Of a DNA stretch of 64,000 nt, positions 7,903 to 60,353 are shown piece by piece. This stretch comes from an uncultured bacterium (GTDB lineage Bacteria > Patescibacteriota > Minisyncoccia > UBA6257 > 2-01-FULL-56-20), in NCBI GenBank assembly GCA_963844965.1, contig CAWJQC010000006.1:32001-96000 (forward strand). Direction: 5' to 3'. The position numbers were made by a program, and so were the translations under genes. Within the stretch, counting starts at the first letter, position 1. Each line of letters starts with the position of its first letter. The notes under the pieces are model-generated. The model ran no database searches, was not told where the DNA came from, and saw only the letters and a program-made list of their open reading frames with translations.

Positions 7903-8657
7903 ATGCCTAAGCGCAAGTTGCAATTGTTAGTGGATCCAAATAAGTGTCTTGATATATTTGGCGCACTAAACCTCCTCGTCAGTTCACAACCGCTGTCCCT
8001 ACGCGAGCAGGAACTACTTGCAAATCTCATAAAGAATCGCGCCCGAGTACTGGAATCATTGAATCTCTTGGTCAGCCCGATAGTAATGGTACACGTCCTG
8101 CCGGGAGGAATCATGCCCAGAAGGATGACGCCAGGCGCTATTGGTTATGATGTCGGTCTAAGGGCTCTGGTTTCTCCTTGGGACATGGAAGAAGAAACTC
8201 CCCATCTGAGAAAAAAAATTGTTCGGCTTTGATTGCAGAACGTCGGAATACCCGGAAATCATGAAAAGCGTGGCTGAGATAAGAAACGAGAACGACAAAC
8301 CGGAGTTGGTGTACCGACTCCATCCGGGAAAATCGGTGACGGTGGGCGTTGGATTTGTCACCGCAATGCCGTTCCCCATGTTTTACTGGGATACTCCCCG
8401 CAGCGGATTGGCGTCAAAATGGCTCATCACGCTCGGTAATGCTCCGGGGACGGTTGACCCCGATTACCGCGGAGAGGCTGGCGTAATTGTAGTAAATAAC
8501 AGCGATAAAGTTTACGAGCTCAGACACAACATGCGCATCGCCCAAATTATCTTTACTTTCGCGCTGATTCCTAAACTCATACCGGTCGCAAAATACGAAG
8601 TATCTGCCAAAAACCATCCGCGGCGCCGGTGGCTTCGGCTCAACCGGTATGCGATAA
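7903..8657 (+). pseudogene. dut: dUTPase (dut) interrupted by two single-nucleotide frameshifts
   Basis: Motif 1 'PGAIGYDVGLRA' is in frame 1. Motifs 2-4 'PRSGLA', 'GTVDPDYRGE', 'RIAQ' are in frame 2 (ORF 8219..8665). Motif 5 'RGAGGFGSTG' is in frame 3 (8619-8657). The shifts fall in an A8 run at 8211-8218 and an A4 run at 8610-8613. Confidence 0.75.
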
Positions 8658-8726
8658 AAAATTAAGGCGGTCGCCTGAGGCGACCGCTCTTTTGTTTCCA
8701 GTGCCAAATTCTTGACTCCCCTTCCG

Positions 8727-13765: not shown

Positions 13766-15948
13766 ATGGCAAAAAGAAACGGCAAAAAGGAACGTAAAGA
13801 AAAAAACAATAGAAATGACGCGCGGCGCGAACCGCCGCGCGAAGAACGGCTCCATCCCGACACGAAAAAAAGCATCTGGGCGATAACTTTTTTGGGTCTC
13901 GCTGTTATTTTCACCCTGGCCGCCTTCGCTAAAGCGGGACCTTTCGGCGACTTTCTGCACGGAATATTCGCAACGCTTTTCGGAGCCGGCTACTTCATGC
14001 TGCCCCTCGGCCTCACACTCGCCGCGGCCATCCTGCTCCTCACAGAAAGGCAAAGGGTCGTTGGCATTACAACGCTCGGCGCCGCGCTTATAGTTTGCTC
14101 GGCGCTCGGGCTCATAGAACTTGCCTCCGCCGGCAAGGGCGGCTGGCTCGGCCTCGTTTTCGGCTCTCTTAGATTGCCGTTCGGGACAACGGCGGCCGTG
14201 GTATTGAACATCGCGATTCTTGTAATCGGCATCCTCATTACCGTCAATATCCCACTCAAGCTCAGAAGACAGAGGAAAGATCTGGCCGCTGGCGAGGAAG
14301 GGAAAACGCTCGTGGTCACCGGCGAAGAGGCGGATGAACGACAAGAGACAGGCGGCAAAGGACAAGGGACAAGTGGCGAAAAGACAAAGGATGCGGAAAC
14401 CGAAAGAAACGCAAGTAAAGCCGAGATCGTTGAAAACGCCGCGCTCGCCGTGGAACCGAAAAAGGTCAGTCCGCCAAAATTCGCGGACTACATCCCGCCG
14501 CCACTCTCGCTCCTCAAATCCACCGGCGAGAAACCGACGACCGGCGACCTTCTCGCGAACGCCAACGTAATCAAGCGCACGCTTGATTCTTTCGGCATCG
14601 CGGTGGAAATGGGCGAAATAAACGTGGGGCCGGCCGTGACACGCTACACACTGAAACCGGCGGAGGGAATGAAGCTCTCGCGCATTGAGGCGTTGCACAA
14701 TGATCTGGCGCTGGCCTTGGCCGCGCACCCGATAAGAATAGAGGCGCCGATTCCTGGAAAATCTTTGGTTGGGATTGAAGTGCCGAACAAAGCCGCCGCG
14801 CTCGTGCGGCTCGGCAGTTTAATGACCTATCCGGAATTCCAAAAATCCGGTCCCTTGGGCTTCGTCCTCGGCCGCGACGTCTCCGGCAATCCGGTCTTCG
14901 CCGATATAGAAAAGATGCCGCACATGCTCGTCGCCGGCGCGACCGGTTCGGGAAAATCCATTCTGATACATTCGCTTCTTGTATCGCTTTTGTACAAAAA
15001 CTCACCCGCCACGCTTAAACTCATCCTCATAGACCCGAAACGCGTTGAACTTTCGGTTTACGACCATATACCGCATTTAGTGGGTCCCGTAATCATGGAA
15101 AGCAAAAAGGCGCTTGGCGTTTTCCGCTGGGCAATAAACGAAATGGAACGGAGATATGACCTACTTCTCCATGCCGGCAGCCGCGACATCAAAAGCTACA
15201 ACCAAAACGGCGGTAAGGACGAACCGCTCCCCTACCTTCTTATAGTCATAGACGAACTCGCGGATATGATGGCTTCATACGGCCGCGAAGTTGAGGGCTC
15301 AATCGTGCGTTTGGCACAGATGGCGCGGGCGACGGGCTTCATCTCATACTCTCAACGCAAAGGCCGTCGGTTGAAGTTATCACGGGGCTCATCAAGGCGA
15401 ACATCACGTCCCGCGCGGCGCTGCAGGTCGCAAGCCAAGTTGACTCACGGACAATATTGGATATGGGCGGCGCGGAAAAACTTCTGGGCCACGGCGACTT
15501 GCTTTATGTTTCTTCGGAACTTTCAAAACCCAAGAGAATCCAGGGCTCTTACATCACGGAGGAAGAGATAAATAAGGTGGCGGACTTCATACGCGACAAC
15601 AACATCCCGGACATAACCGGAATGACCAGCTTCGCGCCTGCCGCGGATTCGGAGCCAGACGAGAAAGGCGGGGGCGGAATGTTTGATGAATACCTTGAAG
15701 ATGAGGATGACGAACTGTATGATGAGGCGGTTGAAGTCGTGCGCGAGGCGAAAAAAGCATCGGCTTCGCTCCTCCAGCGGCGGCTCAAGGTCGGCTATGC
15801 CCGGGCCGCGCGGCTTCTGGACATTATGGAGGGGCGCGGCATTATCGGGCCGGGCGAAGGCGCGAAACCACGGGATGTTTATTTAGAAAAAATACCTGGA
15901 GGCCATGACGCCACCGGCTACGGAAACGAAGCCGGCGAAGAAGAATGA
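13766..15948 (+). CDS. ftsK: DNA translocase FtsK/SpoIIIE, split by one frameshift near 15334-15340
   Basis: N-terminal TM helices, Walker A 'GATGSGKS', and 'RLAQMARATG' are present. After 'acgggcttc' the canonical 'HLILSTQRPSVEVITGLIKANI...LDMGGAEKLLGHGDLLY' and gamma domain continue in another frame (ORF 15457..15948). The likely cause is a g deleted from a G-run. Confidence 0.85.
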
Positions 15949-19329: not shown

Positions 19330-20432
19330 ATGGTTCAAGCCGCCGCTCCAAAAAAATCCAAAGAAGGTACGCCGCAAAGTAAAGAAGAAAATCAAAAGCA
19401 GCTAGATAATCTTCTCTCTTCGCTCCAGGAAAAATACGGCGAAGGAGCGATTATGAAATTGGGCGAAGCGCGCAAAGTTGACGTGGCGGTCGTGCCAACC
19501 GGCTCGTTTTCGCTGGATATGGCGCTTGGCGTCGGCGGCTTGCCTCGCGGGAGAATTATTGAAATCTTCGGGCCGGAGATGAGCGGGAAAACCACACTCG
19601 CCTTGAATGTCGTCGCGCAGGCGCAAAAACAAGGCGGTAAAGCGGCTTTCATTGACGCCGAGCATGCCCTGGACCCGGAATATGCCGCTAAGCTCGGCGT
19701 GAAAGTCAATGAACTTTTGATATCGCAACCCGACAACGGCGAAGAAGCGCTGAATATTCTGGAAAGCCTGGTCAGGTCGGAGATGATTTCCGTTGTTGTC
19801 GTGGACTCCGTCGCCGCGCTCACGCCAAAAGCGGAACTTGAAGGAGAGATGGGCGAACAACATGTCGGGCGGCAGGCAAGGATGATGGGCCAAGCCATCA
19901 GAAAGCTGACAGCAATCGCCGCGAAGACGCAAACGATGGTGATTTTTATAAACCAGCTGAGGATGAAAATAGGGATAATGTTCGGCAATCCCGAAACGAC
20001 GCCGGGGGGGATGGCCTTGAAGTTCGCCGCCTCCGTCCGCATTGACGTCCGCCGCATGGCCCAGGTCAAAAAAGGAGAAGAGGTTGTCGGCAACCGCGTC
20101 AAGGCAAAAGTCGTTAAAAACAAAGTCGCGCCGCCGTTCAAGCTCGCGGAGTTTGACATTATGTTCAGCGAAGGAATTTCCTATGAAGCCGATGTGCTGA
20201 ACGCCGGGATAAGATACGGAGTCATCAAAAAATCCGGCGCGAGTTACGGCTTTTCCGCCCAAGGCGGATCCGCCTCTGGCGGAGAGACGATAAAATTGGG
20301 CACGGCTTTGATAATGTCCGCCTGAAGCTGAAAGAGGACAAGAAATTACTGAACGAGATCAAAAAGAAAGTGACGGAGACAGCGAAAACAGGAGTGATAG
20401 CGGCGAAGAGCGAAAAGGGAGAGGAAGAATAA
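19330..20432 (+). CDS. recA: RecA recombinase carrying a 30 bp palindromic in-frame insertion plus a frame change near its C-terminus
   Basis: Walker A '[10 protein letters not shown]' and the L2-region motif '[25 protein letters not shown]' are present. After 'KKSGASYGF' comes the insert '[10 protein letters not shown]'. The acidic C-terminus '[29 protein letters not shown]...EKGEEE*' is then in another frame, ending at 20430-20432. Confidence 0.85.
20254..20283. repeat. Coding-palindrome element copy E1 (in recA)
   Basis: tccgcccaaggcggatccgcctctggcgga, with 13 bp inverted ends 'tccgcc.a.ggcg' and 'cgcct.tggcgga'. It contains GGATCC. Confidence 0.8.
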
Positions 20433-22962: not shown

Positions 22963-25135
22963 CTATTGCAATTGTTTTATGGACAGCCCGATTCTGCCGT
23001 CTTCGTCGGCACGTATTATCTTTGCGCGGACGAAATCGCCCACCTTAACTACTTCGGTGACAGTTTTAACATAGCCGTTTTTAAGTTCGGAAACGTGGAT
23101 CATCCCGTCGCGACCGCCGCCCAAATCCACTATCGCGCCGAAATCCAGGGTTTTTATAACCGTTCCCTCAATGATGTCGCCGATCTTATATTCTTTGGTA
23201 AGCGCCGTGATTTCCGCGACCGCCGCGTCCGCCTTCGCGACATCCGGCCCGAGACGAACACGCCGCCGTCTTCCTCCACGTCAATACTCGTAAGCCCGTA
23301 TTTCGCGATCAAACCGTTGATCATCTTGCCGCCGGGACCGATAAGCGCGCCGATCTTCGACGGATCGATCTTAAGCTGGCGGATTATCGGGACGTACTTT
23401 GACAACTGCGGCCGCGGCTTGGCGATAACGGATCATCATGTATTTCAAGAATCTCAAGCCGCGCTTTCTTCGCCTGCTCAAGCGCTCTTTCCAGCATTTC
23501 GTGCGTCAAACCGTCAACTTTCACGTCCATCTGCAAGGCGTTCACGCCGTCTTCCGTACCAGCAGCCTTCAGATCCATGTCACCGTGATGGTCTTCCGGA
23601 CCCTGGATGTCGGTCAAAATCTTATATATATCCTTTCCGCCAAAGGCGGATCCGCCTTTGGCGGACATCATTAGCCCCATTGCCGTGCCCGCCGCCGGTT
23701 TTTTTATCGGCACACCAGCGTCCATAAGCGACAGAATGGAAGCGCAAACGGTCGCCATTGACGACGAACCGTTTGAGGACAAAATTTCGGAAACAACGCG
23801 GATCGTGTATGGAAATTCTTCTTTAGGAGGTATAAGGGGCTCAATTGCTTTACGCGCCAAATTGCCGTGGCCGATCTCTCTCCTGCCCGGACCGCGGAAA
23901 GCGCCGATTTCTCCGACCGAATATGGCGGGAAATTGTAATGCAGCATAAAACGCCGCTTGCCGGTCATTTCCATCGTCTCTATGAACTGCTCCTGCCCCG
24001 GAGGAGCGAGTGTCGTTATCCCCAAAGCATGCGTGTTTCCCCGCATGAATAAGGCCGACCCGTGCGTGCGCGGGAAAAGCCCGACTTCGGCGTTAAGTGC
24101 GCGTACTTCATCAAGCCGCCTGCCGTCGGGACGCTTTTCTTTTTCCAAAATATTCTTGTGGACAAGTTCGTTTATCGCTTCCTCAAATAAATAGTCCGCG
24201 TCCTTGAGGATGTGTTCTTCTCCGCCAAAGGCGAATCCCTGCCCGCCGGCAGGCGTGGCGCCTCTGGCGGAAAAATGCTCTTTGACATGCGCGCGCAATT
24301 CCTCGCGCAGTTTCCCAGTGGCGCCCGAAAATTCAACCTTGGTCTGTCTGTATACCGCTTCCTCAAGTTTGTCCGATAAGAATTTTTTAACCATAACCTT
24401 CAGCGGTTCGTCAAATTCGTGCAATATAAGCCCCTCTTTGGGCTTGCCGATCTCCTTTATTATCTTTTTCTGGAATTCTATCAGCTTGTCGTTCTCTTTC
24501 TGCGCCAGCGCGAACGCCGCGAGTATGTCTTTTTCGCCTGCCTCGTCGCCGCCAAGTTCTATCATGTTTATCCTTCCCAAAGAACCGGCGAGGAAGGCAT
24601 CAAACTTCGGTTTCGTTTCTTTTATTTCCGAATTTGTCGGATTGATGGCGAACCTGTCGCCGAACTGCGCCACGCGGACGCCGGCGACGGGACCTCCCCA
24701 GGGAATGTCGGAAATACCGAGCGCGGTTGAAGCGCCCGCGAGTCCCACGAATTCCGGGTCGTTCTCTTCGTCGTAAGCGAGAACGGTCACGACCACCTGG
24801 ATTTCGCGCCTGATGCGCTGGTCAAAAAGCGGGCGGATCGTTCTGTCAACCGTCCGTCCCGCCAAAATCGCGTCTTCTGACGGCCGTGATTCGCGGCGTA
24901 TGAAACGGCTGCCGATTATTTTTCCGGCGGCGTAAAATCTTTCCTCATAATCCACGCGGAGCGGCATATAATCCGCGTCAATGTCCTCTTTGGACATTAC
25001 AACGGTCGTGAGCACCGCCGTCTCGCCGTACTGTGCCAAAACAGCCGCGTTCGCTTGTTCGGCAATCGGCGAAATTTCAAGCGTCAAAGTTTTACCACCG
25101 ACATCGGTGGTGAATTTTTTGCGTGGTATTGGCAT
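22963..25135 (-). CDS. pnp: Polynucleotide phosphorylase (PNPase), split by two frameshifts and carrying two palindromic in-frame inserts
   Basis: The RNase PH core (ORF 23384..25135) has 'SSNGSSSMATVCASILSLMDAGVPI' and 'GPEDHHGDMDLKAAG'. The KH domain 'KIGALIGPGGKMING' is in ORF 23154..23405. The S1 domain '...IGDIIEGTVIKTLDFGAIVDLGGGRDGMIHVSEL...' lies in a third frame and ends at 22963. Shifts occur at about 23407-23416 (gcggccgc) and about 23245-23252 (ccggccc). Confidence 0.85.
23636..23665. repeat. Coding-palindrome element copy E2 (in pnp), a perfect 30 bp palindrome
   Basis: tccgccaaaggcggatccgcctttggcgga equals its own reverse complement and encodes SAKGGSAFGG in the pnp frame. E. 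coli PNPase has no counterpart at this position (...GLVKEGDNYVV...). Confidence 0.85.
24221..24271. repeat. Coding-palindrome element copy E3 (in pnp), 51 bp variant
   Basis: tccgccaaaggcg-aatccctgcccgccggcaggcgtg-gcgcctctggcgga. It has the same 13 bp inverted ends and encodes '...SARGATPAGGQGFAFGGE...' in frame. Confidence 0.7.
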
Positions 25136-28131: not shown

Positions 28132-28518
28132 CTAAGGACATAACGCTACCGCTGCCGAGTTCGCACCAAAGATATTAAGAACAATCAGCGGTACGGATTT
28201 CGCAAGCAATGCCACCACCAAGCCAACCACGGCGTAGGTAAGCATCTTCGTGGCTTCGCTTACTTTGGTCGGGTCGCCGGAAGAGGTCATATACTTATAC
28301 GCCGCGACAAGCACCAAAAGTATGACCAATGCCATGAGAATGTACCACATCCAGAAAGCAACCTCGCAAATCACATTGTCAATAAGCTGATCTGGAGTGC
28401 TATATGTCGGTACGGGAATTACCGATTGTGCGAAAACCTTATTCGCAGAAAGGAGCAGCAACTGGGATAGAAGCAGAACACCATACCGATATTTCACGGC
28501 TGAAAATAAATTTTTCAT
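28132..28518 (-). CDS. T4SS-pilin-like protein B (128 aa, signal peptide)
   Basis: 'LVAAYKYMTSSGDPTKVSEATKMLTYAVVGLVVALLAKSVPLIV' is paralogous to A. Confidence 0.65.
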   Translation of the reverse strand: MKNLFSAVKYRYGVLLLSQLLLLSANKVFAQSVIPVPTYSTPDQLIDNVICEVAFWMWYILMALVILLVLVAAYKYMTSSGDPTKVSEATKMLTYAVVGLVVALLAKSVPLIVLNIFGANSAAVALCP

Positions 28519-28644
28519 ACAATATTTTTTAACTTTATAACCGGCTGAAACGCTTATTTTCGGCCTTTTACGTTGTCTTTATCATACCACAAACTCCGAG
28601 AATTGCACTGGGGATAAAGGTGCTGCTTAACCTACCGCACCACC

Positions 28645-28992
28645 TCAACAGCCTCCACTGACGCTACTGGCACCGACTATACTGGCGACTATTGACGGGA
28701 CGGACTTCGCGAGAATTGCCACAATGATGCCTGCAGCGGCATAAGCAAGCGTCTTATGCGCCGAACTCACTCTTTCTGCGTTATCGCCGCCGGTAACATA
28801 GAGAAACCCGGCGTAAATTATCATAATCACGGAAAGCGCCATCAGAATGTAAAACATGGCAACGGCGATCGGGCAGAGAATTTTACTGGTAATATCCGAA
28901 ACGCCGCCGCTGAAAGTTATGCCGGAAACGTCGGCATAAGCGCCGCTTACGCCAAAAAGTTTCAGGAAACCGAGAATCAAAACCGGCGACAT
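28645..28992 (-). CDS. T4SS-pilin-like protein C (115 aa)
   Basis: 'YAGFLYVTGGDNAERVSSAHKTLAYAAAGIIVAILAKSVPSIV'. Confidence 0.65.
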   Translation of the reverse strand: MSPVLILGFLKLFGVSGAYADVSGITFSGGVSDITSKILCPIAVAMFYILMALSVIMIIYAGFLYVTGGDNAERVSSAHKTLAYAAAGIIVAILAKSVPSIVASIVGASSVSGGC

Positions 28993-29092
28993 TATGGTCC
29001 TCGTTTTCGGCGAGTTTCACAATGTAATTAACTATTTTCATAGTCCTTTCCTGCCTATTAATTTTAACACACCGGGCAAGTTATAAAACTAT

Positions 29093-30819
29093 TCACCCCC
29101 CGACCCCGAAAATCGCCTGGATAAGGCTGACCACGCCTTTCGCCGCGAGAACCGCCACAAAACCGATGGCCGCGTAAAGAATCGTGTTCCTGCCGTTCTT
29201 GAACTTTTCCGGATTGCCGCCGGCGGTTATTATCTGGAATCCGCCGTAAAGAACCATAATGGCGACTATGGGAACGGCTATCGTGATCAAAAGGTCAATG
29301 ATCTTATTGGCACAATCCGTGATGGTTGAGCACGCGCCCTGGAGAGGATTGGTAAGCGAGCCGCTGAGAGTCACGTTGCTGCCGGGTGATTGACCACTTG
29401 GCGACTGACCGCTGGGTGATTGACCGCTTGGCGACTGACCGCTGGGTGATTGACCGCCAGGCGTGCTCGCAGTCCATTGGCAAGCACCATTACCACCGAA
29501 AGCGCCAACACACGCACTCTGGGTCGTATAAAGCGTGCAGTTGGCGGACTGACAGTTCGCGCCAGTAGTATCTTGGGTACAAGTACCTCCGCTACACGCA
29601 GCAGTGCATGAAGCGACAGTATAAGAACAGCCACCAGTGCTGCAGTAATATGGCGTCACGGCGCTACACGTGCCGCCGCTGGTGCCAGCAGGCGATGTTG
29701 TAACACATTCACCGGTAGTAGTATTGCAGTAGGGGGCGTTACTGTATGCAGCGGCGCACTGACTGTTGCTGCTACACCCAACGCATGCATTATTAACGCA
29801 GATGGGCTGGGTCTCGACCGTGCATTTGGTGCTATCAGTGCCACAGCCGCTCGGCGCGGTCGTAACACATTCACCGGTAGTAGTATCGCAGTAGGGAGCA
29901 TTACTATATGCAGCGGCGCACTGACTATTACTGCTACATGCAGAGCATATATTATTGACGCAGATAGGTGCCGTCTCGCTCGTACAAATACACTACTATC
30001 ACCACTGCAACTGGTCGGCGAGGTTGTGACACATTCACCGGTATTAGTATTGCAGTAAGGAGCATTACTATATGCAGCGGCGCACTGACTATTACTGCTA
30101 CACCCAACGCACGTGCCACTAGAGCCACAGATGGGCTGGGTCTCGCTCGTGCATTGACTGCTATCGGTGCAGCTACCGCCGCCGCTGCATTGATTGGTGC
30201 TCGGCAAGCCGGGCGCCAGACAGCCCGAAGAACCATACCAGCCGCATCCCGCACTACAGCAGGTAGGTTGATCAATGCAATTACTGCAACTGGATAAGTT
30301 ACACGAACTGCCGCCGGTGCTCGCATTGCATACTTGCCCGCCGGCGCAACCACTATCGGAGCTGCAGGAGTTGCCAACGCCGCTACTATTGGCGTTATTT
30401 GACAGACAACTGCCAATCTGGGGGGATGCCACCGCGCAAGTGCAACCGACCCCAGTATAACAATTTCCCGCCGGCGAAGCGGAAGCGCAACTGCAAGTAA
30501 CCCCATCAGAATTAGTATTGCATACCTGGCCACCAGCGCAGCCGGAGTCGGTCGTGCAGTTTCCGCCGCCGTTGGATGGGTTGCAAGACACGGAACAATT
30601 ACTATCGGAGTAAGCGTTGGTTCCACAGCCTGCTGGATCTAAACAATTACCGGCCAGACAGTCATCGTTCGTCATGCAACTCGAACCGCAGGCTTCATAG
30701 AACGTACTGGGACAGGCCTGCGCGTGACTTACAGATGGTCGGCCAAAACCGAAAATAAAAGCGGCGATGACCACAAAAGCGAAAATCAGAAGCCGCTTCT
30801 TCATAATTTTATTATACAT
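29093..30819 (-). CDS. Cysteine-rich tandem-repeat secreted protein fused to a C-terminal T4SS-pilin-like domain (frame breaks inside the repeats)
   Basis: The N-terminal ORF (29656..30819) has a signal peptide and repeated 'S/TDSGCAGGQVCN' Cys modules, then runs out of frame through three ~130 bp DNA repeats. ORF 29093..29659 overlaps it by ATGA. It contains (GQSPS)x5 and ends 'LYGGFQIITAGGNPEKFKNGRNTILYAAIGFVAVLAAKGVVSLI'. Confidence 0.6.
29390..29462. repeat. 15-nt tandem repeat x5 encoding (GQSPS)n
   Basis: ccgctgggtgattga / ccgcttggcgactga units. Confidence 0.75.
29686..30110. repeat. Three tandem ~130 bp repeats inside the Cys-rich gene
   Basis: '...cattcaccggtagtagtattgcagtagggngcnttactntatgcagcggcgcactgact(a/g)tt(a/g)ctgctaca...' recurs three times with indels. 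Confidence 0.7.
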
Positions 30820-30828
30820 TATTTGGCG

Positions 30829-31347
30829 CTATTCGGGCAGAAACTTAGACCATAGTCCTTGCCAGACAGAGCTTTCGTTAACGAAAGCTGGCACCGTCAG
30901 GGCGACTTTCAATAGGCAGGCCTGCGGCTGCGTAATACCCAGGGCGCTGAGAAAATCAGATTCCGCCCGACTGCGCACTTCGTTGAAAGGATTGTTAAGT
31001 ATAGTGATGAGGAAGCTGCTGTCAGCAGGAAAGTAAAGAATGTGGTAATCTCCGGTGCTTCTGAACAAAACATAATCACCCGCTTCTACTCTCACGGCAT
31101 TTTTATAGGGATTTTTTACTTCCACGCTGCCGTTGGGCGTACCGATGGTAATCGTATCTCCCTCGGGGACGGGGATTGGCGGCGGAGGAGGCGTTGGTGA
31201 CGTGGGCGGGGAAATCGGCGGCAAGCCGCCGGGACCGGTACTTCCGGCAGGAGAGGTCTTGTTCCTGACAACCAAAACGACAACTACTCCGACGACTAGC
31301 ACAAGAAAAATTACCGCTATAATAATTATTCTTCTCGTTTTTAACAT
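30829..31347 (-). CDS. Membrane-anchored protein with a Pro-rich linker (172 aa)
   Basis: N-terminal TM helix 'IIIIAVIFLVLVVGVVVVLVV', then 'PISPPTSPTPPPPPIPVPEG'. Confidence 0.5.
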   Translation of the reverse strand: MLKTRRIIIIAVIFLVLVVGVVVVLVVRNKTSPAGSTGPGGLPPISPPTSPTPPPPPIPVPEGDTITIGTPNGSVEVKNPYKNAVRVEAGDYVLFRSTGDYHILYFPADSSFLITILNNPFNEVRSRAESDFLSALGITQPQACLLKVALTVPAFVNESSVWQGLWSKFLPE

Positions 31348-32366
31348 GATAACTTATGAGGACTTGGCGGGGTGAAATTGCATGTGCAGTTCACACTCCA
31401 GTTATCCCATGCCCGGGAATTGGCGGCAAGGGGACAAGCAGCGTTAATATTCGGGCTCGATTTTGTGGCGTCGGTGACACACTTTTTATACAGTGATGTA
31501 TTTACAACCTGACAATGGTAAACATGGTTTGTGCTGTCCCACTGAGCTGCGTGGTTAAAGGCGCTGGGACAGCCATCGCCGTTCACGTCATTTACGGTCA
31601 GGTTGATTTGGAACAGTCCCCACGAGAAAACACTGTTATCTTCCGCGCACTTATCCGACGTGCTCGGCGCCGTAGGATCGCCGCCACTTTCCTTGCTGGC
31701 AATGGAGGAAGCGTCATACGGACCATTACCGATACCGCCGAAACACGAACTGTTGAGGTTGTCTTGTGAAGCATCGCCGCTTGTAAGTGGCGCGCAATTT
31801 CCACTTGAATTGTTGCACGGACTGCCCGGATCGCAACTGCCCGGATAGCAATTTGAGGTTCCTCCGGCATTACTTTGACAATCTGCCTGGCTTGAGTAAT
31901 TAGCTACACACATATTTCCGGCGGCTGATACCTGACACAGTTGGTAAGATGTAGAGCCTCCGCTCGCCGTCGGCGCCGCCACCTGTACCGAAACACCAGG
32001 GAGCAGTAAATTCCAATTTGTCAGATTAGGATTGATGATGTTTAAAATCGTATAAGCTCCGACAAGGAGCAGGAGTCCGACTAATGCACCTTTCACCCAC
32101 TCTTTTCCTTCTGTTTGGCCAGTGGGGTTTCCGGCTGCCAGCGTGTATTTTATCCCGCCATAGACGATAGCTCCGAACGCCAGAATGCCGGCAAGCATCA
32201 TGGCAAATCTATAAAGATAGTCAACGAAGTTCCCCAGGCCGGAGCTGCCAGAAGGTTGACCGGGCAGATTTGTGTAGATAGTGACCTGCGCCCGCGCCAC
32301 CGCGGCGTAAAATAAACAGAAGGAAGCAAAGACCAGTGGACGTAATTTTTTAAACAAGGTTTTCAT
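31341..32366 (-). CDS. T4SS-pilin-like N-terminal domain fused to a Cys-rich lytic-transglycosylase-like (VirB1/SLT-like) domain (341 aa)
   Basis: Pilin-like 'FGAIVYGGIKYTLAAGNPTGQTEGKEWVKGALVGLLLLVGAY'. The C-terminal 'SKESGGDP...SVFSWGLFQIN' matches the SLT catalytic E-S ... GLxQ(I) pattern, with many Cys. Confidence 0.55.
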   Translation of the reverse strand: MKTLFKKLRPLVFASFCLFYAAVARAQVTIYTNLPGQPSGSSGLGNFVDYLYRFAMMLAGILAFGAIVYGGIKYTLAAGNPTGQTEGKEWVKGALVGLLLLVGAYTILNIINPNLTNWNLLLPGVSVQVAAPTASGGSTSYQLCQVSAAGNMCVANYSSQADCQSNAGGTSNCYPGSCDPGSPCNNSSGNCAPLTSGDASQDNLNSSCFGGIGNGPYDASSIASKESGGDPTAPSTSDKCAEDNSVFSWGLFQINLTVNDVNGDGCPSAFNHAAQWDSTNHVYHCQVVNTSLYKKCVTDATKSSPNINAACPLAANSRAWDNWSVNCTCNFTPPSPHKLSC

Positions 32367-32842
32367 TATCCCGAAACAGTGCAGTTAAACGGACCGCCGA
32401 ACCCCTGGATGAAACTTGAAAGGCTGAAAAAGTCCACGAACAATTTCACGATGACAAAGGCGAATATGACTATAAGCAAGCCGATTAAAGCGCCGGTCAG
32501 AATTTTTTTCGCGTTCTCGCGTCGAGCCGGACTGCCGCCGGAGGTAAGATACGTGATGCCGCCCCAAGCAAAGAGAATCGGCGTGAAAACGAAAAGTACG
32601 AGCGTTATGCCGAAATAAATTATGTTCACCATGGTCTGGATAATGTCGCAGACGCTCGTGCAGTATTTTTTCGCGGCTGCCTGTCCGCTGTAAATGCCCG
32701 TGCAGGACACAAGCCCGCCGGTGCCCCAATAACCACCGGGAAATATAGATGGCGTCTGAAGCACGTCGGCGGAAGCCACCAGCGGCGCGGCGAGAACGAT
32801 GACAAAAAACGAAACACAAGAGATTAGTAATAGTCTGCGCAT
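32366..32842 (-). CDS. T4SS-pilin-like protein F (158 aa)
   Basis: 'FTPILFAWGGITYLTSGGSPARRENAKKILTGALIGLLIVIFAFVIV'. Confidence 0.6.
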   Translation of the reverse strand: MRRLLLISCVSFFVIVLAAPLVASADVLQTPSIFPGGYWGTGGLVSCTGIYSGQAAAKKYCTSVCDIIQTMVNIIYFGITLVLFVFTPILFAWGGITYLTSGGSPARRENAKKILTGALIGLLIVIFAFVIVKLFVDFFSLSSFIQGFGGPFNCTVSG

Positions 32843-45114: not shown

Positions 45115-45663
45115 ATGCGCACGATTTACTTCATAACCGGCAGTGAGGGAAAATTCAGGGAGGTGGAACATTTTTTGCGCGCGAAAAACATAAAGATAAA
45201 ACGGATTAAGCTGAGTCTGGACGAAATTCAGGAACTGGACGCGGAAAAAATAATCAGGCACAAGGCGCGCGAGGCGGCAAGTAAAATAAGCGACGACTTC
45301 ATCCTTGAAGACACCTCGCTCTATATAAACGGACTGGGCGGACTGCCCGGCCCATTGATCAGATGGTTCCTGCAAGAATTAGGCAATGAAGGAATAAATT
45401 GGTTGGCGTCGCGGGTCGGCAACGGCAAAGCCCGCGCGGAAACTATTCTGGCATGCGCCAGAGGTGGCCGCGTTTTCTATTTCAAGGGCGCTACGAACGG
45501 AAAAGTTGTCAAACCAAAAGGCAGGAATGATTTCGGCTGGGGGCCACTCTTCAAACCGAACGGCGCGCGCGAAACTTTCGGTGAGATGTCGGGAGACGAA
45601 AAAAATAAATGGAGTATGAGAATCAAAGCCGTTAAAAAATTAGCGGAATTTCTCGGCAGGTAA
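45115..45663 (+). CDS. rdgB: Non-canonical purine NTP pyrophosphatase (RdgB/HAM1)
   Basis: 'FITGSEGKFREVE', 'FGWGPLFKPNGARETFGEMSGDEKNKWSMR'. Confidence 0.8.
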   Translation: MRTIYFITGSEGKFREVEHFLRAKNIKIKRIKLSLDEIQELDAEKIIRHKAREAASKISDDFILEDTSLYINGLGGLPGPLIRWFLQELGNEGINWLASRVGNGKARAETILACARGGRVFYFKGATNGKVVKPKGRNDFGWGPLFKPNGARETFGEMSGDEKNKWSMRIKAVKKLAEFLGR

Positions 45664-47186: not shown

Positions 47187-47969
47187 TTAAGCCGCAATCT
47201 TCTCGGCAAACACGGACGGCGGCATCTTGAGGGCGGAGTGGATCCGCGTGTGGTTGTACTGCCACAAGGTGCTGTAGATCTCCGCCACGAGCTCGCCGAA
47301 GGTCCCGAACCGGTTGGGATCACCGAGGTCAATCTTGAACTTGTCATAGAACGATTCCTGGTAGCCGTTTTCCCATGGGGCACCGGGCCGCGACCGCGAG
47401 ATCGTGATGCCACAGTCCCCCAGTGTATCGGTGAACGCTCGTGCCTTGTACTCGCTGCCGTTGTCCGAATGGAAGATGACCGGATGCGGATGGTGGAAAA
47501 GCGCGTTGGCCAGGGTCTGTATCGTGAGGGGCGATCCTTTCCGCAACGCCACATGGACGCCCATCAATCGTCTCGTGAAAAGATCGAGTATCGTGGACAC
47601 GTACACTTTCTTGCCGCGATACAGGAACTCCGTGAAATCGGTTGCCCAGACGTGGTTCGCGTACGAGGGCATGATGGCAAGTAAGAGGTTCGGAAAGGCC
47701 CGCGATGCCTTTGATTTCCGGTATTTCCTGCCTCGCCTCCGGTACGGCCTTATGCCGAAGATTCGCATGACGCGCTGCGCTCGCGGACGGCTCACGCCCA
47801 GAGCTTGTCCCAAGCGCCGGGAACCGTATGCCGGATGGCGCTGCAATTCTTCTTCCATGCGGATCTTGAGCGCCCAATCTTTCTTGTCCTGCCGTGATAC
47901 GTAGTAGAGCGATGCCCGCGAGACGCCCATGGCCCGCGCCATGGCGGACTTGTTCCGCTTTTCCGTCAA
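47187..47969 (-). CDS. IS3 transposase OrfB (rve integrase core, DDE)
   Basis: 'HSDNGSEY' integrase-core motif. It has a TTG start and is normally made as an OrfAB fusion. Confidence 0.8.
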   Translation of the reverse strand: MTEKRNKSAMARAMGVSRASLYYVSRQDKKDWALKIRMEEELQRHPAYGSRRLGQALGVSRPRAQRVMRIFGIRPYRRRGRKYRKSKASRAFPNLLLAIMPSYANHVWATDFTEFLYRGKKVYVSTILDLFTRRLMGVHVALRKGSPLTIQTLANALFHHPHPVIFHSDNGSEYKARAFTDTLGDCGITISRSRPGAPWENGYQESFYDKFKIDLGDPNRFGTFGELVAEIYSTLWQYNHTRIHSALKMPPSVFAEKIAA

Positions 47970-48229
47970 TTCTTTTTTTGGGCCTGGGAGAGCTTCACGG
48001 TGAGCTCGCCCACCACTTCAAACAGCTCCCTGTTCTGCTTCTGGAGACGGCTGAACTCGCCCCAGGAAGGGACGCCCGATGCTCCTGCGCCTAGCCAATT
48101 GTAGATGGTGGACTCGTGCAAACCGTGGTCCTTCGCAGCCTGCGCTACGGGGACTCCTTCTTCCTTCACCCGGCGGAGGATGTCCGCCTTCACTTCCTTC
48201 GCAATCCGATGCCCTTTTTTGTTGCTCAT
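47966..48229 (-). CDS. IS3 transposase OrfA (HTH)
   Basis: 'GVPVAQAAKDHGLHESTIYNW' HTH. It ends '...AQKKN*' across the A7G site. Confidence 0.75.
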   Translation of the reverse strand: MSNKKGHRIAKEVKADILRRVKEEGVPVAQAAKDHGLHESTIYNWLGAGASGVPSWGEFSRLQKQNRELFEVVGELTVKLSQAQKKN

Positions 48230-51718: not shown

Positions 51719-51799
51719 TGTACACAGATTTAGTTAGACGTGGAATCCCAGCAACGGGATCACCACAAATTTGATAGCCAATACAAGGAGGGCCTAACC

Positions 51800-53801
51800 A
51801 TGGCCAGTAATGTAAAGAAAGCATTTGAGGAAGCTGGAATTGATGTTCCCGAAGTTCCCACCTCCGGCATCGCCGGAACGGAAACGACGGTACCACCTTC
51901 TGCTCCGGCGGACGCAACTGCAACCGCTACAACACCGGCACCTTCCGTACCAGCAGCTACCGACACCACACCAACTGCCGACAAACAACCAGTTGTTCTT
52001 TCTTTCGGCAGAGTTGACCGGGAAGCCGCTGCCAAACTCCGCGAGCAGAAGAAGACGGAATTGGAAGCAATCCCGTCCTTCGTCGCGGAACTCGTTGTCT
52101 TGCTCAAGAACCCCCGCGAAGAGACCATACTGTCTATGACCGACGGCACCGAGCGTTCGCTCACCCTCGAAGAATTCGAGGCATACATCGCCACCGTCGT
52201 AAACGGGACCCAGCATCGCGGCGTCCGCCAATCGTTTACAACTGCCGTCGTGGAACAGATGTTGGGGCAATTTCCACCGTCTGATCATCTGTTCGGCGTC
52301 GCGTTCACGAGGGTTTCAACAGCGCTAACAGATACCGACGGAAGGGGCTTTTTCTTCGAAGTAGAGAAGGATTGGGCCCTGAAGAACCCCGGCAACGTAA
52401 TCTGGATGTACAGGAGCGACGGGAGCGGCAAGGCGCCGTTCGCCTCGGTCGCACCGGACTCCACTCGTCTCATGATTGCCACCAAAAAGTGGCTGGACGA
52501 GATTGAGCGGGCGGAGAAATCCCGCATCAAAACCGGGACCAAGCCGTTCCTAGAAGCGTTTTACCAGGGCGGGGAAACCGCTTTCTTCCTCAAGAAGAAG
52601 GAGATTCCCCGCAGGGACGGCGGCACTATAATCCGAAAGGCCGGTCACTTCCGCATTCACATCGAAGACGGCAAAAACGGGAGAATCCGCCCAGTGGAGG
52701 CACTGGAATCGCCTCACCACGACCTGTTTGAGGAAATGACCTCTCGCAGGGAGTGGGTATCAATCGGCGTCCTAGCGCCGGAAATCGTCGGCGCCGACCC
52801 GGAAAATAGGCAGAAAATGATCGCCGCCTATTTCCGGGACGTGGAGAACTATGAGCAGCGCAAGCGGTTCATCCGTTTCGCGCACATCATAATCGATGGC
52901 TACATCGACGCCCTGGCATCCGAGAAGAAGGCGGCCGAGGCGCACGAAGGTGGCCGAGAAGCCGGTACCTGCGGCCAAAACTGCCGAAACCAAACCCACC
53001 GGAGAGCACCGTGATTCGGCAAAAGCCGATTACATGAAGCTCGAGGAGCTGAAGCGGAGGGGGGGATACATTTCCTCGCGAAGCTTCATGCTCGACCGCA
53101 AGCCGGGCGTGGCTCTCTTCTCCGCGAAAACGGAGGAGAAGCCATCTCGCCACAAGAACAATCGTGGCGAGATGGTTGTTATCCCTGCGCTCATGGTGCG
53201 GGACAGCAGCGGCAAGAAAGTCGCCGTCTACCACAGGCTCGGTGCCGCGCTGGAACAGAACGAGAAAGGGGAGATTCGCATGATTGATTGCATCCCCTCT
53301 AACGCAAAACTTTTCGCTCCGCTCAAGGAATTTATCACCCCGGGCGAGAAGTTTGCGAATATTCCGGAGCCAGCCGCTGCCGCTCTGCGGAAGTTCTACG
53401 GCCACGAAGCTGGAGACAAGTGGAAGGACAGCTTGCGGGAAAAGCGGGCGGCACAAGCGGCACAAAATGCCGCTGGCCAGCCAGCAACTACCCCCACCCC
53501 TCCACCCGAAGCCGCGCCATCACCTGCCGCCGACAATACAATCAACACGACTGCGGCGGACGAAACAGCGGCGACGGAAGCCAATACCGCTACGGGGGAG
53601 GCTAGCCCGACCATGGAGGAGGCCCGGGAGCCACAACCGGAAGTGGGATCTGCCGAAGTTGCTCTGACACCGCCGGTGGAAGCCACCGAGGTGATGTCGG
53701 GCAACGACACGTTGTCTGCGGCGCCGATAAAACTCGACGAAGGACGAAGGCGCCGTCGGGACAATAACCGCCGGCACCAGCAGCGCGGTCTGGCGGCGTA
53801 A
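51800..53801 (+). CDS. Hypothetical ~670 aa protein (Thr/Pro/Ala-rich linkers), apparently frameshifted near 52940-52950
   Basis: ORFs 51740..53014 and 52896..53801 overlap. Both turn to low-complexity read-through at 'gaaggtggccgagaagccg', so a single-nucleotide shift would join '...AEAHE' to 'VAEKPVPAAKTAETKP...'. Confidence 0.5.
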
Positions 53802-53938
53802 GTAGCTTTTTCCGCTAGAGCTCCTATGGAGTTTTAGCACAACCCGTGTGGTTTTCCGAGTGCAAACTCGGAAAACCCACGGGTCTTTTATTTGTCCAAG
53901 TGAAGAAAAAGACGGGGAATGGTTGGGGTAGCTTTGAC

Positions 53939-53969
53939 TTGACAGGTTGGAAATAAGTATGCTATAATA
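53939..53969 (+). promoter_or_regulatory. Putative promoter (TTGACA-19-TATAAT) upstream of the NUDIX gene
   Basis: ttgacaggttggaaataagtatgctataat. It shares the 'cttgacagg' start with the 51690 promoter. Confidence 0.4.
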
Positions 53970-54040
53970 CCAAGCAGTGGGTAGCTGACGGAATTGCTTC
54001 CGCTGGCGGCCGACAAATTCATCAGCAAAGGAGGTGGCCC

Positions 54041-54670
54041 ATGGCCGCCAAAGGAATACGATCATCGGAAGCGATGCGTGTGTTGGAAGCGGACGACCCG
54101 CTTCCCTGGGAAACCTTTTCCCGAGTCGTTCGCTTACTGATTATTGACACGAAGCTGGACGATGCCGGGAAACCCCTTCTGGATAAAAGCGGCTGGCCCG
54201 TGGAGGAGGTGTACTTCGCCTACAACTCCTCCGACCAGACCGGTCATCGCCCGGCCGGTTACGGCCTGCCCGGGGGGCGCGCCAAGAAAAGGGAGGGGTC
54301 TCTAGACGCTCTTGAACGAGAGGTCTCCGAGGAAGTTCCGTACCCAATCTTGGGCGAACCGATCTTCCTCCTGTCCTATCGTAAGTCAATCGGAGGGCAG
54401 AGGATCGAGAAGGTTGACCTATACTTGGCGAAAGTGGACCGGACCAACACTCACGCTCTTAAAAAGGGCAGCGAGGTCGGCGACGGCCGCTTCTGGGATA
54501 AAAGGGAAATATGGAGTCAGCCCGTAGTTGACACCCGGCCTGACGCACAGGAAGCGGAAGAATCTCCGGAAAGCAAAAGAAGGGGATTCTACAAGTCGCA
54601 CCTTGACTTGTGTCGGCTCGGCCTCAAAAAACGGGGCGAGCTAATAGAGGAGGGAATTATTAGGCCCTGA
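54041..54670 (+). CDS. NUDIX hydrolase
   Basis: Nudix box-like 'GLPGGRAKKREGSLDALEREVSEEV'. Confidence 0.65.
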   Translation: MAAKGIRSSEAMRVLEADDPLPWETFSRVVRLLIIDTKLDDAGKPLLDKSGWPVEEVYFAYNSSDQTGHRPAGYGLPGGRAKKREGSLDALEREVSEEVPYPILGEPIFLLSYRKSIGGQRIEKVDLYLAKVDRTNTHALKKGSEVGDGRFWDKREIWSQPVVDTRPDAQEAEESPESKRRGFYKSHLDLCRLGLKKRGELIEEGIIRP

Positions 54671-54799
54671 CAACTTTCTCCGCGCGCAAGCTCGTGAGCT
54701 TGCGCGCGGAGAACGAACTTTTTTATAATGACGGGAAACAATTTACGTTTTAAGATACTTGCTTAAAACGTTTTTTCATACTAAAATACTTCATTAGGA

Positions 54800-55075
54800 A
54801 TGACCGACGAGCTTATAAAACAATTGAAGGACGCGGGGTTCCCGCTCCACAAGGAAGCGGGCGCAACGCGGCCGCCCACGCTATCCGAACTTATCGCGGC
54901 GTGCAGCAAAGGTTTTTGGAGCTTGCGCCGGACGCCGGAGGACAAATGGCTCGCCTCCGGCCATTTTTCCGCGAAAGAAGGCCAAATTCCTTACTATGAA
55001 TCGGTCGCGTATGACGAACCGGAGGTAGCGGTCGCGGAACTGTACTTGGCAATAAAGCTGTATGAATCAGAGTAA
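54800..55075 (+). CDS. Hypothetical 91 aa protein
   Basis: ORF only. Confidence 0.4.
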   Translation: MTDELIKQLKDAGFPLHKEAGATRPPTLSELIAACSKGFWSLRRTPEDKWLASGHFSAKEGQIPYYESVAYDEPEVAVAELYLAIKLYESE

Positions 55076-55511
55076 GTGCGGAAACGAACCCACTCAACAA
55101 ACTTGGGGCAGGATGGAAGCTTCGCGCGGCCACGCCGTAGCCGTACTTATAATTACGCCGCAGGGGATACCACTGATACGCGATCCCAAAAAACCTCCGC
55201 CGGTTTTTTGGAAAGCGCCGGGAGGACGCAGCGACGCGAGCGAAACGGCAAAAAGCGCCGCGGTGCGCGAGGTGCGCGAAGAAATCGGCGCGAAACTTTC
55301 CGAAAATGACCTCGCGATTGTTTCCGAAGAAGACAGAGATTCGCACATTCTCACGCTCTTTGCGGCCAAACTTCCGTCTTTGCCCGCTATAAAAGACCGT
55401 GGCGACGAAGGCGAAGAGATCCGCATATTTTCTCCGAGCGAAATTCTTGCCATGCACGATTTCTTCCCAAATCACAGGAAAGTATATGAAAAAACACTCA
55501 AGGCTCTATAG
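55062..55511 (+). CDS. NUDIX hydrolase
   Basis: 'APGGRSDASETAKSAAVREVREEIG' Nudix box. An alternative start is at 55113 (MEASRG). Confidence 0.7.
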   Translation: MNQSKCGNEPTQQTWGRMEASRGHAVAVLIITPQGIPLIRDPKKPPPVFWKAPGGRSDASETAKSAAVREVREEIGAKLSENDLAIVSEEDRDSHILTLFAAKLPSLPAIKDRGDEGEEIRIFSPSEILAMHDFFPNHRKVYEKTLKAL

Positions 55512-57533: not shown

Positions 57534-57608
57534 TGGTGCGCGCGCCTGGATTCGAACCAGGAACCTGCCGTGTATAAGACGGATGCTCTGCCGTTGAGCT
57601 ACGCGCGC
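57534..57608 (-). tRNA. tRNA-Ile (TAT anticodon), CCA encoded
   Basis: Acceptor GCGCGCG/CGCGCGC. D-stem GCTC/GAGC. Anticodon stem TCCGT/ACGGC (27:43 U.C) with loop CTTATAC. T-arm CCTGG-TTCGAAT-CCAGG. Confidence 0.6.
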
Positions 57609-57835
57609 TTCCTTTCCCCTATTCCCATTTTACAAAATAGACTCTGGTTTTGTAAGTCCTACGCGCCGCTTTTTGTTTTTAGGAAGCTGTCGGAGGCGAC
57701 GCAAGCTTGGTTCCGCTGAAAGCGGATTGCGCCGCCGACCTGCCTGCCAGGCAGGGATGCAGAGCCGATTCGCCGCTGGAGCGAATCGAGCTCGATTCTC
57801 AAAAACAAAAACCGGCGCGGTTACAAAACGAGGGT

Positions 57836-58423
57836 CTACTTGCTTACTATCTTGTCAAATCTGTCCATCGCTTGCCCAGCCTGGTCGTTGAAATTATTTA
57901 TGGCTTGGACTTCGGCGTTGATCTGGTCCACTAAAAGCGCGACTGTTTTGCTGTCGTAGGTCTTGCCGGTGAAATTGCTGCGCAAGGCGTCCAGAAGCTG
58001 GCCCAGGTAGCCGCTGTAATTTATGAGGCGGGAGAGAAGCGCCAGGCGATTGGAAATTGATTCAAGCGCGGCCTGTCTGGCATCAAGCGAATCTATATCG
58101 GAGAGCGCCTTTGTCATTTCCTCCACCTGACCCGAGAGCTCCACGGCCTGGTCGCGTATCTCCTGGCTTTGCTTCACGACGTCGGTGGATAAATTCAGGG
58201 CCTCGGTATAATTTCCCTGCATGTCGTATTCGTCTATTTTTGCCAAGTCAAGCGTTGACTGATTGGAAAGGTTAACGATATTTTGGGATATGAGCGCCCC
58301 CTTCATCCGCGCGTCGGTGAAGGCCTGCGGCACACCACCCGAATTCCACAAAAAATGCACGGCTGTGTAACCACCGCCTACGAGCAGAACAAAAACAATA
58401 AGCAATATTGTTCTCCGAGACAT
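57836..58423 (-). CDS. Hypothetical membrane-anchored coiled-coil protein (195 aa)
   Basis: N-terminal TM helix, remainder helical and Q/A/L-rich. Confidence 0.5.
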   Translation of the reverse strand: MSRRTILLIVFVLLVGGGYTAVHFLWNSGGVPQAFTDARMKGALISQNIVNLSNQSTLDLAKIDEYDMQGNYTEALNLSTDVVKQSQEIRDQAVELSGQVEEMTKALSDIDSLDARQAALESISNRLALLSRLINYSGYLGQLLDALRSNFTGKTYDSKTVALLVDQINAEVQAINNFNDQAGQAMDRFDKIVSK

Positions 58424-58758
58424 CTGAAAAATGTTTCCGTTTAATTCCTTTTAGCAGATTCCGCGGAAAAAATCAATAACCGCCACTTGAGAATATACGC
58501 CTTGGAATGTAAAATGAAGTTGGTCGGAACTGCGAACTGGCGCGATTATTACATAACTAATACGACAGAAAACATCCGTTCGGTTCGGCTCGCGGCAATT
58601 AACATTTAACGCACAAGCGGGCCCCGCACCGAGCCGGGCACTTCGTTTTCTACAACGTCGGTGGTAAGATATTGTAACCACACCAAATTCAAAACTTGGC
58701 ATCGGCAGTTTTTTTCAGGAAAATGTAAAAGTGTTGCGGTGCCCGATCTGGTGACGGG

Positions 58759-58797
58759 GCGGGTGTAGCACGGCGGTTAGTGCGGACCTTCCAAGCC
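58759..58797 (+). other. tRNA 5'-half-like fragment (acceptor GCGGGTG + D-arm) upstream of tRNA-Gly
   Basis: 'GCGGGTG TA GCAC GGCGGTTA GTGC G GACCTTCCAAG' has a perfect D-stem and a CTTCCAA-like anticodon remnant. Confidence 0.45.
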
Positions 58798-58829
58798 CCG
58801 CACCAAAGAAGGACTTGGTGAGTCATCTT

Positions 58830-58900
58830 GCGGGCGTAGTATAGCGGCAATACGTCACCCTTCCAAGGTGAAGTCGTGGGTTCAACTCCCATCGCCCGCT
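58830..58900 (+). tRNA. tRNA-Gly (TCC)
   Basis: Acceptor GCGGGCG/CGCCCGC. Anticodon stem TCACC/GGTGA with loop CTTCCAA. T-arm GTGGG-TTCAACT-CCCAT. Confidence 0.85.
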
Positions 58901-58944
58901 CACAAAACGCAAGCAGTCCTTCTTATGGTGACAGGGCAAGCAAC

Positions 58945-58977
58945 ATACGGCGGTTCGACTCCGCTCACCCGCTCAGA
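58945..58977 (+). other. tRNA 3'-half-like fragment (T-arm + acceptor CACCCGC) downstream of tRNA-Gly
   Basis: 'AC GGCGG TTCGACT CCGCT CACCCGC TCA'. Its acceptor strand is exactly complementary to GCGGGTG in the upstream fragment. Confidence 0.45.
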
Positions 58978-59010
58978 AGAAGGGGGTTGGGGGATAATTA
59001 CCACGCAAAC

Positions 59011-59481
59011 ATGATTAGGTGCACATTTGAAAACGGCAGTGAGGCCTTCATGCGGCACACCGTAGTAGACACCATCGTGCTTAAGGACGGCAAGGTCCTT
59101 TTGGTCAAGAGAGCAAAAAAATTTCTTGAGGGCGGCAAATGGGCGCTTGTCGGAGGATTTATGGAAAAGAACTAAACTATCAAGGAGGCGGTGGCGCGGG
59201 AGGTCCTTGAAGAGACGGGGTATGAGGTGGGCGGCATTACCCTGTTCCGCATAATCGATAATCCCAATCATCCGGGCGAGGACAGGCAAAATGTTTGTTT
59301 TGTCCACTACTGCAACGCCCTCAAAAAAACCGGCGCGCCGGATTTGGAAAATGATGAACAACGGTGGTTTTCTTTTTCAGAACTGCCGCCCAAAGACGAA
59401 ATGGCCTTTGATCACCTGGAAGATATTTGCCTCTATCGGGAGTACACCGAGAAACCCCTCATTTTACCGAGAATCGGATAA
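59011..59481 (+). pseudogene. NUDIX hydrolase with an in-frame TAA at the conserved Nudix-box Glu codon
   Basis: 'GGFMEKN*TIKEAVAREVLEETGY' spans ORFs 58876..59175 and 59191..59481 in the same frame. The TAA (59173-59175) sits where GX5EX7REUXEEXGU expects GAA. Confidence 0.6.
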
Positions 59482-59545
59482 TGTTTTCTGCTATAATCTA
59501 TAAATAAAGAAGTTAACGAAAACGAAAGTCGCCAAACAAACTACC

Positions 59546-60041
59546 ATGGACATATTCGCTTCGGTTAAGGACGTTATGATAAAGAAGGTGGTAACCGCCG
59601 CGTCTGACACGCCGCTGATTGAGGCCGTAAACCGCATGCTGGCCAACAAGTATCTCCGGGCTTCCTGTGGTTGATAAGAACAACAAAGTTATCGGGATTG
59701 TCACTGAATACGACATAACGACGAAAGGATCTCTCGCGAATCTAACGACGTATGTGAGGCTTCTGCAAGAGTCGCGTGTGTACAAGCACGGACACGAGGA
59801 AGATTCTATTTTGGGCAGCATAAAAAGGGTGCTAAGCGCAACCGTGGGCCAAGTAATGAATCCCGAGCCGTTGGTCTTGAAACAAGATGCCTCCATCAAT
59901 CAGGCGGTGCAGACATTTGTTGAACACCACAGCGTAAACCCGATACCGATCGTTGACGACGCCGGCAAGCTGGTCGGCGTTTTAAGCAGGCACGACCTCA
60001 TAAAACTTTTTTATATTTCATCCGTTCGTCCCGGCAAGTAG
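59546..60041 (+). CDS. CBS-domain pair protein, frameshifted near 59655
   Basis: 'MDIFASVKDVMIKKVVTAASDTPLIEAVNRMLANK' then shifts (tatctccggg) into 'SGLPVVDKNNKVIGIVTEYDI...' with a second CBS 'VNPIPIVDDAGKLVGVLSRHDL'. Confidence 0.6.
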
Positions 60042-60353
60042 ATCCGAAATACAGCATGGCTAAAAAATAAGGCCCTTCCGCAAGGGAAGGGACCTATTGA
60101 GTGTGGCGCGTTTGCGCCGAAGAGTTTGCCCGGCAATACGCTGGGCGTATTAGTGCGAACTTTTCAGTTGTCAGTGAGCCTAATTTAATGATAGCCAAAC
60201 CCGTTAACCCGTCAAACCCCGCCCTGTGGATAACTTTTTATATCATAAATCAGTCATTAATTAACGAGTTAAAGAGCTAACGAGTTGAAAAACACAATCC
60301 AACCAACCCGTGAACTCGTTAACGCGTTAACTCATTAATCAAAAATTTATAAC

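Follow-up and report, generated by a model that had tools for sequence, protein, structure and literature searches.

Proteins of the Nudix superfamily (PF00293) are recognised by a Nudix box of the form GX5EX7REUXEEXGU. The glutamates of the REUXEE portion of the box bind metals, whereas the role generally ascribed to the Glu of GX5E is stabilisation of the loop-helix-loop for cation binding (PMC5389931). Within the superfamily, the system closest to the gene described here is an uncharacterised 156-aa subfamily that is common in metagenome-assembled genomes (MAGs) of the Patescibacteria/CPR. Members of this subfamily share the consensus MIxCxFExG...GKWALVGGF...REUXEETGY...EDRQN...AFDH, and none of them has a known substrate. 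Two other kinds of known case are relevant to an interrupted gene of this type. One is provided by ordinary bacterial nonsense pseudogenes and segregating loss-of-function alleles, with which the present gene would share a single inactivating point mutation, a non-essential function with paralogues and an otherwise undecayed reading frame, but from which it differs in that the assembly hosting it has demonstrable consensus errors. The other is provided by Nanopore assemblies of methylated DNA, for which single-base errors linked to GATC and to homopolymers have been documented (PMC12392509). Catalogues of soil MAGs built from Nanopore reads only, with one round of Medaka polishing, exist (PMC12313526), and the closest genome match to the locus described here is one such MAG.

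The gene lies in a stretch of 64 kb, referred to below as the window, and its coordinates are given in the table together with those of the other features discussed. Its frame opens with an ATG and runs to a terminal TAA at 59479-59481, and the sole defect within it is the TAA at codon 55; translation reveals no further stop and no shift of frame. Codon 55 corresponds to the first Glu of the Nudix box, which is the Glu of GX5E. The joined translation consists of MIRCTFENGSEAFMRHTVVDTIVLKDGKVLLVKRAKKFLEGGKWALVGGFMEKN, the codon 55 stop and then TIKEAVAREVLEETGY, and the residues that immediately precede the stop read GKWALVGGFMEKN. G49, R63, E64, V65, E67, E68, G70 and Y71 are all present with the correct spacing, and the box is incomplete in that its GX5E glutamate codon is TAA. 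With Glu supplied at codon 55, the joined product matches the Pfam NUDIX model over residues 14-131 with an E-value of 1.9e-21 (76.9 bits against a cut-off of 21.1), which indicates that the two ORFs are parts of one gene cut by one codon and do not lie side by side by chance. The preliminary description of this DNA had placed a TAA at the Nudix-box Glu of this gene and had considered the frame otherwise intact through both ORFs; translation agrees with it on the coordinates and the box, and the Pfam match of the joined product bears out the second point. No uninterrupted full-length frame exists for gene finders to report, and they call a 41-aa and a 96-aa piece. Proteins identical to these two fragments are on record in NCBI, ENA and Logan.

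Table. Features of the window that bear on the interrupted Nudix gene (positions in the window; c., approximate position)
Feature	Position	Strand	Basis or remark
dUTPase gene	8219-8665
FtsK gene, frame lost at 15333 (one G lost, GGGG to GGG)	13766-15948	+	ORF/domain survey
PNPase gene, lesions at c. 23431 and c. 23245	22963-25135	-	domains spread over three frames
Ham1/ITPase gene	45115-45663
Nudix paralogue	54041-54670	+	Pfam, E=1e-4
Nudix paralogue	55062-55511	+	Pfam, E=5.5e-16
tRNA-Gly(UCC), directly upstream of the Nudix gene	58830-58901	+	ARAGORN, Rfam
Nudix hydrolase gene, 156 codons, one in-frame stop	59011-59481	+	translation, Pfam, full-length alignment
N-terminal fragment as called by gene finder, 41 aa (P0217)	59050-59175	+	gene call on Logan contig L001
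Nudix box, G49-Y71: G-FMEKN-[TAA]-TIKEAVA-R-E-V-L-E-E-T-G-Y	59155-59223	+	translation
In-frame TAA, codon 55 (family residue Glu)	59173-59175	+	translation and homologue alignment
C-terminal fragment as called by gene finder, 96 aa from GTG (P0011)	59191-59481	+	gene call
CBS-pair gene (context only, not a functional partner)	59546-60041	+	1-nt insertion

An Rfam search over positions 58400-59560 detected nothing besides the tRNA-Gly. A fragment resembling a tRNA 3' end, GCGGTTCGACTCCGCTCACCCGCTCA, which comprises a T-arm and the 3' strand of an acceptor stem, is present on the plus strand at 58950-58975, about 50 nt downstream of the tRNA-Gly and about 35 nt before the start of the Nudix gene. 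The fragment, which was called by neither ARAGORN nor Rfam, could be what is left of a tRNA or of an integration event.

A search of 5.8 billion proteins at E<=1e-10 returned 474 hits, most of which are 155-160 aa in length and begin with the motif M-I-x-C-x-F-E. The best full-length homologue shares 72% identity with the Nudix protein, and the search found none above that value. A scan of GTDB genomes, a set without the source genome, gave a best match of 63%, and no JGI metagenome contig was hit in an exact-pattern scan with N allowed at 59173. The 156-aa product agrees with its homologues in length and at both termini, and it carries the features that mark the 156-aa CPR-type subfamily, namely a length of about 156 aa, the M-I-x-C-x-F-E start, GKW, EDRQN and AFDH. 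In an alignment of 29 sequences (28 homologues, which are 53-72% identical to the window protein, together with the window protein itself), all 31 invariant columns are kept by the window protein; G48, G49, R63, E64, E67, E68 and G70 are among the positions that are invariant in the family alignment. The window gene thus resembles the subfamily in its length, its termini and every canonical Nudix-box position except Glu55, and departs from it in the stop at codon 55 and in four conservative changes elsewhere. The best homologues of both the Nudix protein and the neighbouring CBS protein come from Patescibacteria/CPR-type MAGs, and together with the multiple T4SS-pilin-like genes and the DUF5663 gene of the window they make an uncultured host of that type probable.

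The column that corresponds to codon 55 is Glu in 28 of 28 aligned close homologues and in 118 of 118 homologues of at least 140 aa. Glu is likewise found at 75 of 79 loci from GTDB species genomes, encoded by GAA at 51 and by GAG at 24, and the remaining four loci, which are divergent, carry other residues. The preliminary description had proposed a comparison with orthologues, and this comparison identifies GAA as the commonest codon in the relatives, so that a single G to T change at 59173 accounts for the TAA. The four divergent loci (L045, L046, L050 and L069; match from 4001 onwards) are 40-55% identical to the window protein and have the Nudix-box Glu replaced by Phe, Lys, Arg or Gly. 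At one of them, L069, only residues 1-56 align, and the four may be degenerate or truncated copies. The preliminary description had also called the lost Glu catalytic. Its position is strictly conserved, but a stabilising role is generally given to it and metal binding to the REUXEE glutamates. The exact role of the GX5E Glu is moot for a stop codon, since the product ends at residue 54 and includes no part of the REUXEE helix.

Four other positions that are conserved in at least 90% of the family are altered in the window protein (L14M, L38F, R53K and R87H). This number of departures places it in the top 9% of the family, as judged from the 118 homologues of at least 140 aa, and could be taken as a weak hint of relaxed constraint.

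Assignment of a substrate by way of NCBIfam or PDB was attempted and yields generic Nudix similarity only. The models for the MutT 8-oxo-dGTP diphosphatase score 29.9 bits against a cut-off of 97.9 (TIGR00586) and 33.8 bits against 148 (NF008044). The PRK05379 models of NCBIfam, which represent NadM-Nudix/ADP-ribose pyrophosphatase, reach at best 43 bits against 409 and align to the Nudix domain region only. Every NCBIfam equivalog score of the protein is far under its cut-off, and the best PDB matches are unnamed MutT/Nudix proteins with E-values of only about 1e-10. The labels "8-oxo-dGTP diphosphatase" and "ADP-ribose pyrophosphatase YjhB" that members of the subfamily bear in the source databases are generic.

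The interruption is probably a real nonsense allele or a young pseudogene. A GAA to TAA change through a G to T transversion at 59173 would inactivate the Nudix hydrolase gene, as translation would end after 54 residues, before the metal-binding REUXEE helix, and no active enzyme would be expected. Because everything else in the gene is intact, the lesion would have to be recent, and the gene would be either a young pseudogene or a loss-of-function allele that is dominant in the sampled population. Loss of the enzyme is probably tolerated by virtue of related house-cleaning enzymes that are encoded nearby. Candidates for such redundancy in the window are two Nudix paralogues located 3.5-5 kb upstream of the broken gene, a Ham1/ITPase and a dUTPase. 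On this account the T would be present in the DNA rather than being a base-call error, the gene would be non-functional and the paralogues would compensate for it.

Evidence that the T is real comes from a second assembly. Logan unitigs are built from the reads of one run, and k-mers that were seen only once are dropped (PMC12424806). Logan contig L001 (run ERR10755942; 2009 bp) is 100% identical to positions 57641-59649 of the window, TAA included. Since singleton k-mers are dropped, the T must be present in two reads or more, and no rival path was preferred to it. The agreement of L001 with the window makes an artefact of the assembler or polisher, or a random read error, unlikely at 59173. 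The character of the change points in the same direction. Comparison of the window with seven Logan contigs (13,416 bp) shows five discrepancies, of which three are transitions and two are 1-nt indels, one in a run of G and one in a GATC. The stop mutation is a G to T transversion that lies 237 nt from the nearest GATC and outside homopolymers, which places the TAA outside the error classes seen in the draft.

The principal alternative, which is possible though clearly less likely than a real lesion, is that the gene is intact with GAA at codon 55 and that the T stems from a systematic error of the reads or the consensus that went uncorrected, in what would probably be an error-prone, Nanopore-only metagenome assembly. 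The preliminary description had left the choice between a one-base nonsense pseudogene and a substitution error, and that choice stands, with L001 now repeating the T. The agreement of the two assemblies disposes of random error, which could not have reached a majority of the reads, and is compatible with a systematic base-calling error. GATC-linked indels occur in both assemblies, suggesting that error-prone long reads of one kind, possibly of a single run, underlie both; if the reads are of one type, as is likely, the agreement does not amount to independent sequencing evidence. A literature search for the platform or project of run ERR10755942 returned no mention of it.

The case for a sequence error rests on the quality of the draft, which contains at least four 1-nt frameshifts in conserved genes within 64 kb: one in FtsK (15333), two in PNPase (c. 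23431 and c. 23245) and one in the CBS gene (59651). With several consensus errors in a window of this size, a stop arising by chance would not be very improbable. In FtsK, the 601-aa ORF spans 13766-15571, and past the lesion the gamma domain is encoded in a different frame. An intact FtsK of 727 aa is encoded by Logan contig L082, also from run ERR10755942, showing that consensus errors do occur in the window sequence. Compared with the window, L082 has one G more in the G run and shows two transitions, of which that at 14745 exchanges Ala and Val in the conserved APIPGK motif of FtsK and that at 15339 is synonymous. PNPase is divided into a 583-aa RNase PH part, an 83-aa KH ORF and a 55-aa S1 ORF, which requires the loss of one nucleotide from each of two short C runs, the one at c. 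23431 being inside a GATC. A search for Logan contigs across these two sites yielded none, the available one (L086) covering only the first 284 nt of the gene, which encode its N-terminal part. Elsewhere in the window, a further pair of plus-strand ORFs at 51740-53014 and 52896-53801 lacks any Pfam match, overlaps by 119 nt in different frames and has 58% GC. It may be another split gene, as its layout resembles that of the FtsK frameshift. The RecA gene (19330-20325) differs between the assemblies at position 20056, where ATG (Met243) in the window corresponds to GTG (Val) in Logan contig L087, and this transition could be either a strain variant or an error.

The frameshift nearest to the stop is that in the CBS gene, where an extra T at about 59651 (AAC AAG T ATC TCC) destroys a GATC; intact 164-aa homologues (P0121, P0122 and P0124) read NKISGLPVVD at this place. 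Contig L001 reaches only to 59649, which is one or two bases short of the insertion, and the next contig, L083, starts at 60044. The end of L001 at this point fits heterogeneous base calls at the CBS GATC. The preliminary description mentioned neither this frameshift nor those in other core genes. A decaying operon of the Nudix and CBS genes was considered and rejected: CBS adjoins the Nudix gene at 0 of 80 related loci, and because it is not a conserved neighbour, the adjacent lesions provide no evidence for such an operon. The lesion in CBS is one of the GATC-linked errors.

Errors or variants are found in both assemblies, as shown by Logan contig L084, which corresponds to window positions 53665-55503. 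In this contig an extra A at 55184, inside a GATC (GCGAT-A-CCC), disrupts the second Nudix paralogue, whose frame is unbroken in the window. Since GATAC on one strand reads GTATC on the other, the CBS and L084 lesions are of the same error type. Three of the five indels known in either assembly are inside a GATC (PNPase at 23431, CBS and the GAT-A-C of L084), whereas sequence no more than 2 nt from such a site makes up just 1.8% of the window. GATC is also rarer in the window than expected, with 148 sites against about 249 predicted from base composition. Together, the depletion of GATC and the concentration of indels within it suggest Dam-type methylation and motif-linked base-calling errors, and these indels look like Nanopore error at methylated sites.

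The window is thus like documented Nanopore drafts in its 1-nt indels at GATC and homopolymers and in its transition disagreements (PMC12392509). The TAA is unlike them, being a transversion outside GATC and homopolymers that is identical in both assemblies, where the T was obtained by two different assembly procedures with no break or alternative path. A methylation motif at the stop would have to overlap AACGAAAC/AACTAAAC. The assemblies disagree by substitution at three places, each time through a transition, and this too argues against counting the T among the errors of the draft. A real nonsense mutation remains the preferred reading of the TAA.

It is very improbable that the two halves of the protein are made separately, as 54 aa and as 96 aa re-initiated at the GTG at 59191, and reassemble as a working split enzyme. 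Both pieces are called by gene finders, and an AAGGAGG is found just upstream of the GTG. This Shine-Dalgarno-like sequence, however, is only 2 nt from the GTG, and it derives from the K-E-A codons of the conserved TIKEAVA, which full-length relatives possess as well. The break falls inside the Nudix box and residues 55-60 would be lost. None of about 470 family members was found to be divided at codon 55.

Decoding of the TAA, either by reassignment or by programmed readthrough, would yield a full-length Nudix protein, but there is scarcely any likelihood of it. The only point in its favour is the intactness of the rest of the frame. Genome-wide recoding of TAA was considered and rejected on the basis of the stop-codon usage and tRNA complement of the window. 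Among 73 long, non-overlapping ORFs in the window, TAA is the terminator of 33, TGA of 22 and TAG of 18, so that each of the three stop codons is used for termination, and ORFs as long as 1617 aa can be read normally with code 11. Reassignment would be expected to leave TAA unused as a terminator and frequent within conserved genes, which is not the pattern observed. None of the eight tRNAs that ARAGORN identifies in the 64-kb window has a stop-reading anticodon, and no other in-frame stop was seen in the scanned window genes with Pfam matches. A readthrough-promoting RNA structure is not indicated either, as shuffled sequences fold at least as well as the 101 nt that surround and follow the stop (z=+0.98). 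Insertion of a residue other than Glu would moreover substitute a residue that is invariant in 118 of 118 homologues. Reassignment is effectively excluded because TAA is the main terminator, the window encodes no suppressor tRNA and the RNA near the stop has no unusual structure, in keeping with the view in the preliminary description that a recoded stop is unlikely. The chance is equally slight that low-frequency readthrough, for example by near-cognate decoding, gives a trace of full-length enzyme, which if true would mean leaky or regulated house-cleaning activity from an apparently dead gene in a bacterium with a reduced genome.

The finding is ordinary. In biological terms it is minor, as it amounts to the loss, or the mis-sequencing, of a further dispensable Nudix house-cleaning gene that has paralogues nearby. 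The wider lesson concerns data quality: single-base errors linked to motifs and homopolymers break FtsK, PNPase and CBS in this draft, and apparent pseudogenes in this and similar long-read-only MAGs should be given no biological reading without checks at the level of the reads.

Several other features of the window can be recorded. Along with a DUF5663 gene, it contains multiple T4SS-pilin-like genes, including a cluster of five with the T4SS_pilin domain (PF18895) on the minus strand at 28132-32842. An IS200-like Y1 transposase gene is located at 555-992 on the minus strand. A tRNA-Ile gene with the uncommon anticodon TAT (UAU) is found at 57534-57608, also on the minus strand. An IS3-type element on the same strand at 47187-48229 has two ORFs, for an HTH transposase and an rve integrase, with an overlap of 4 nt, which is the arrangement usual for programmed frameshifting.
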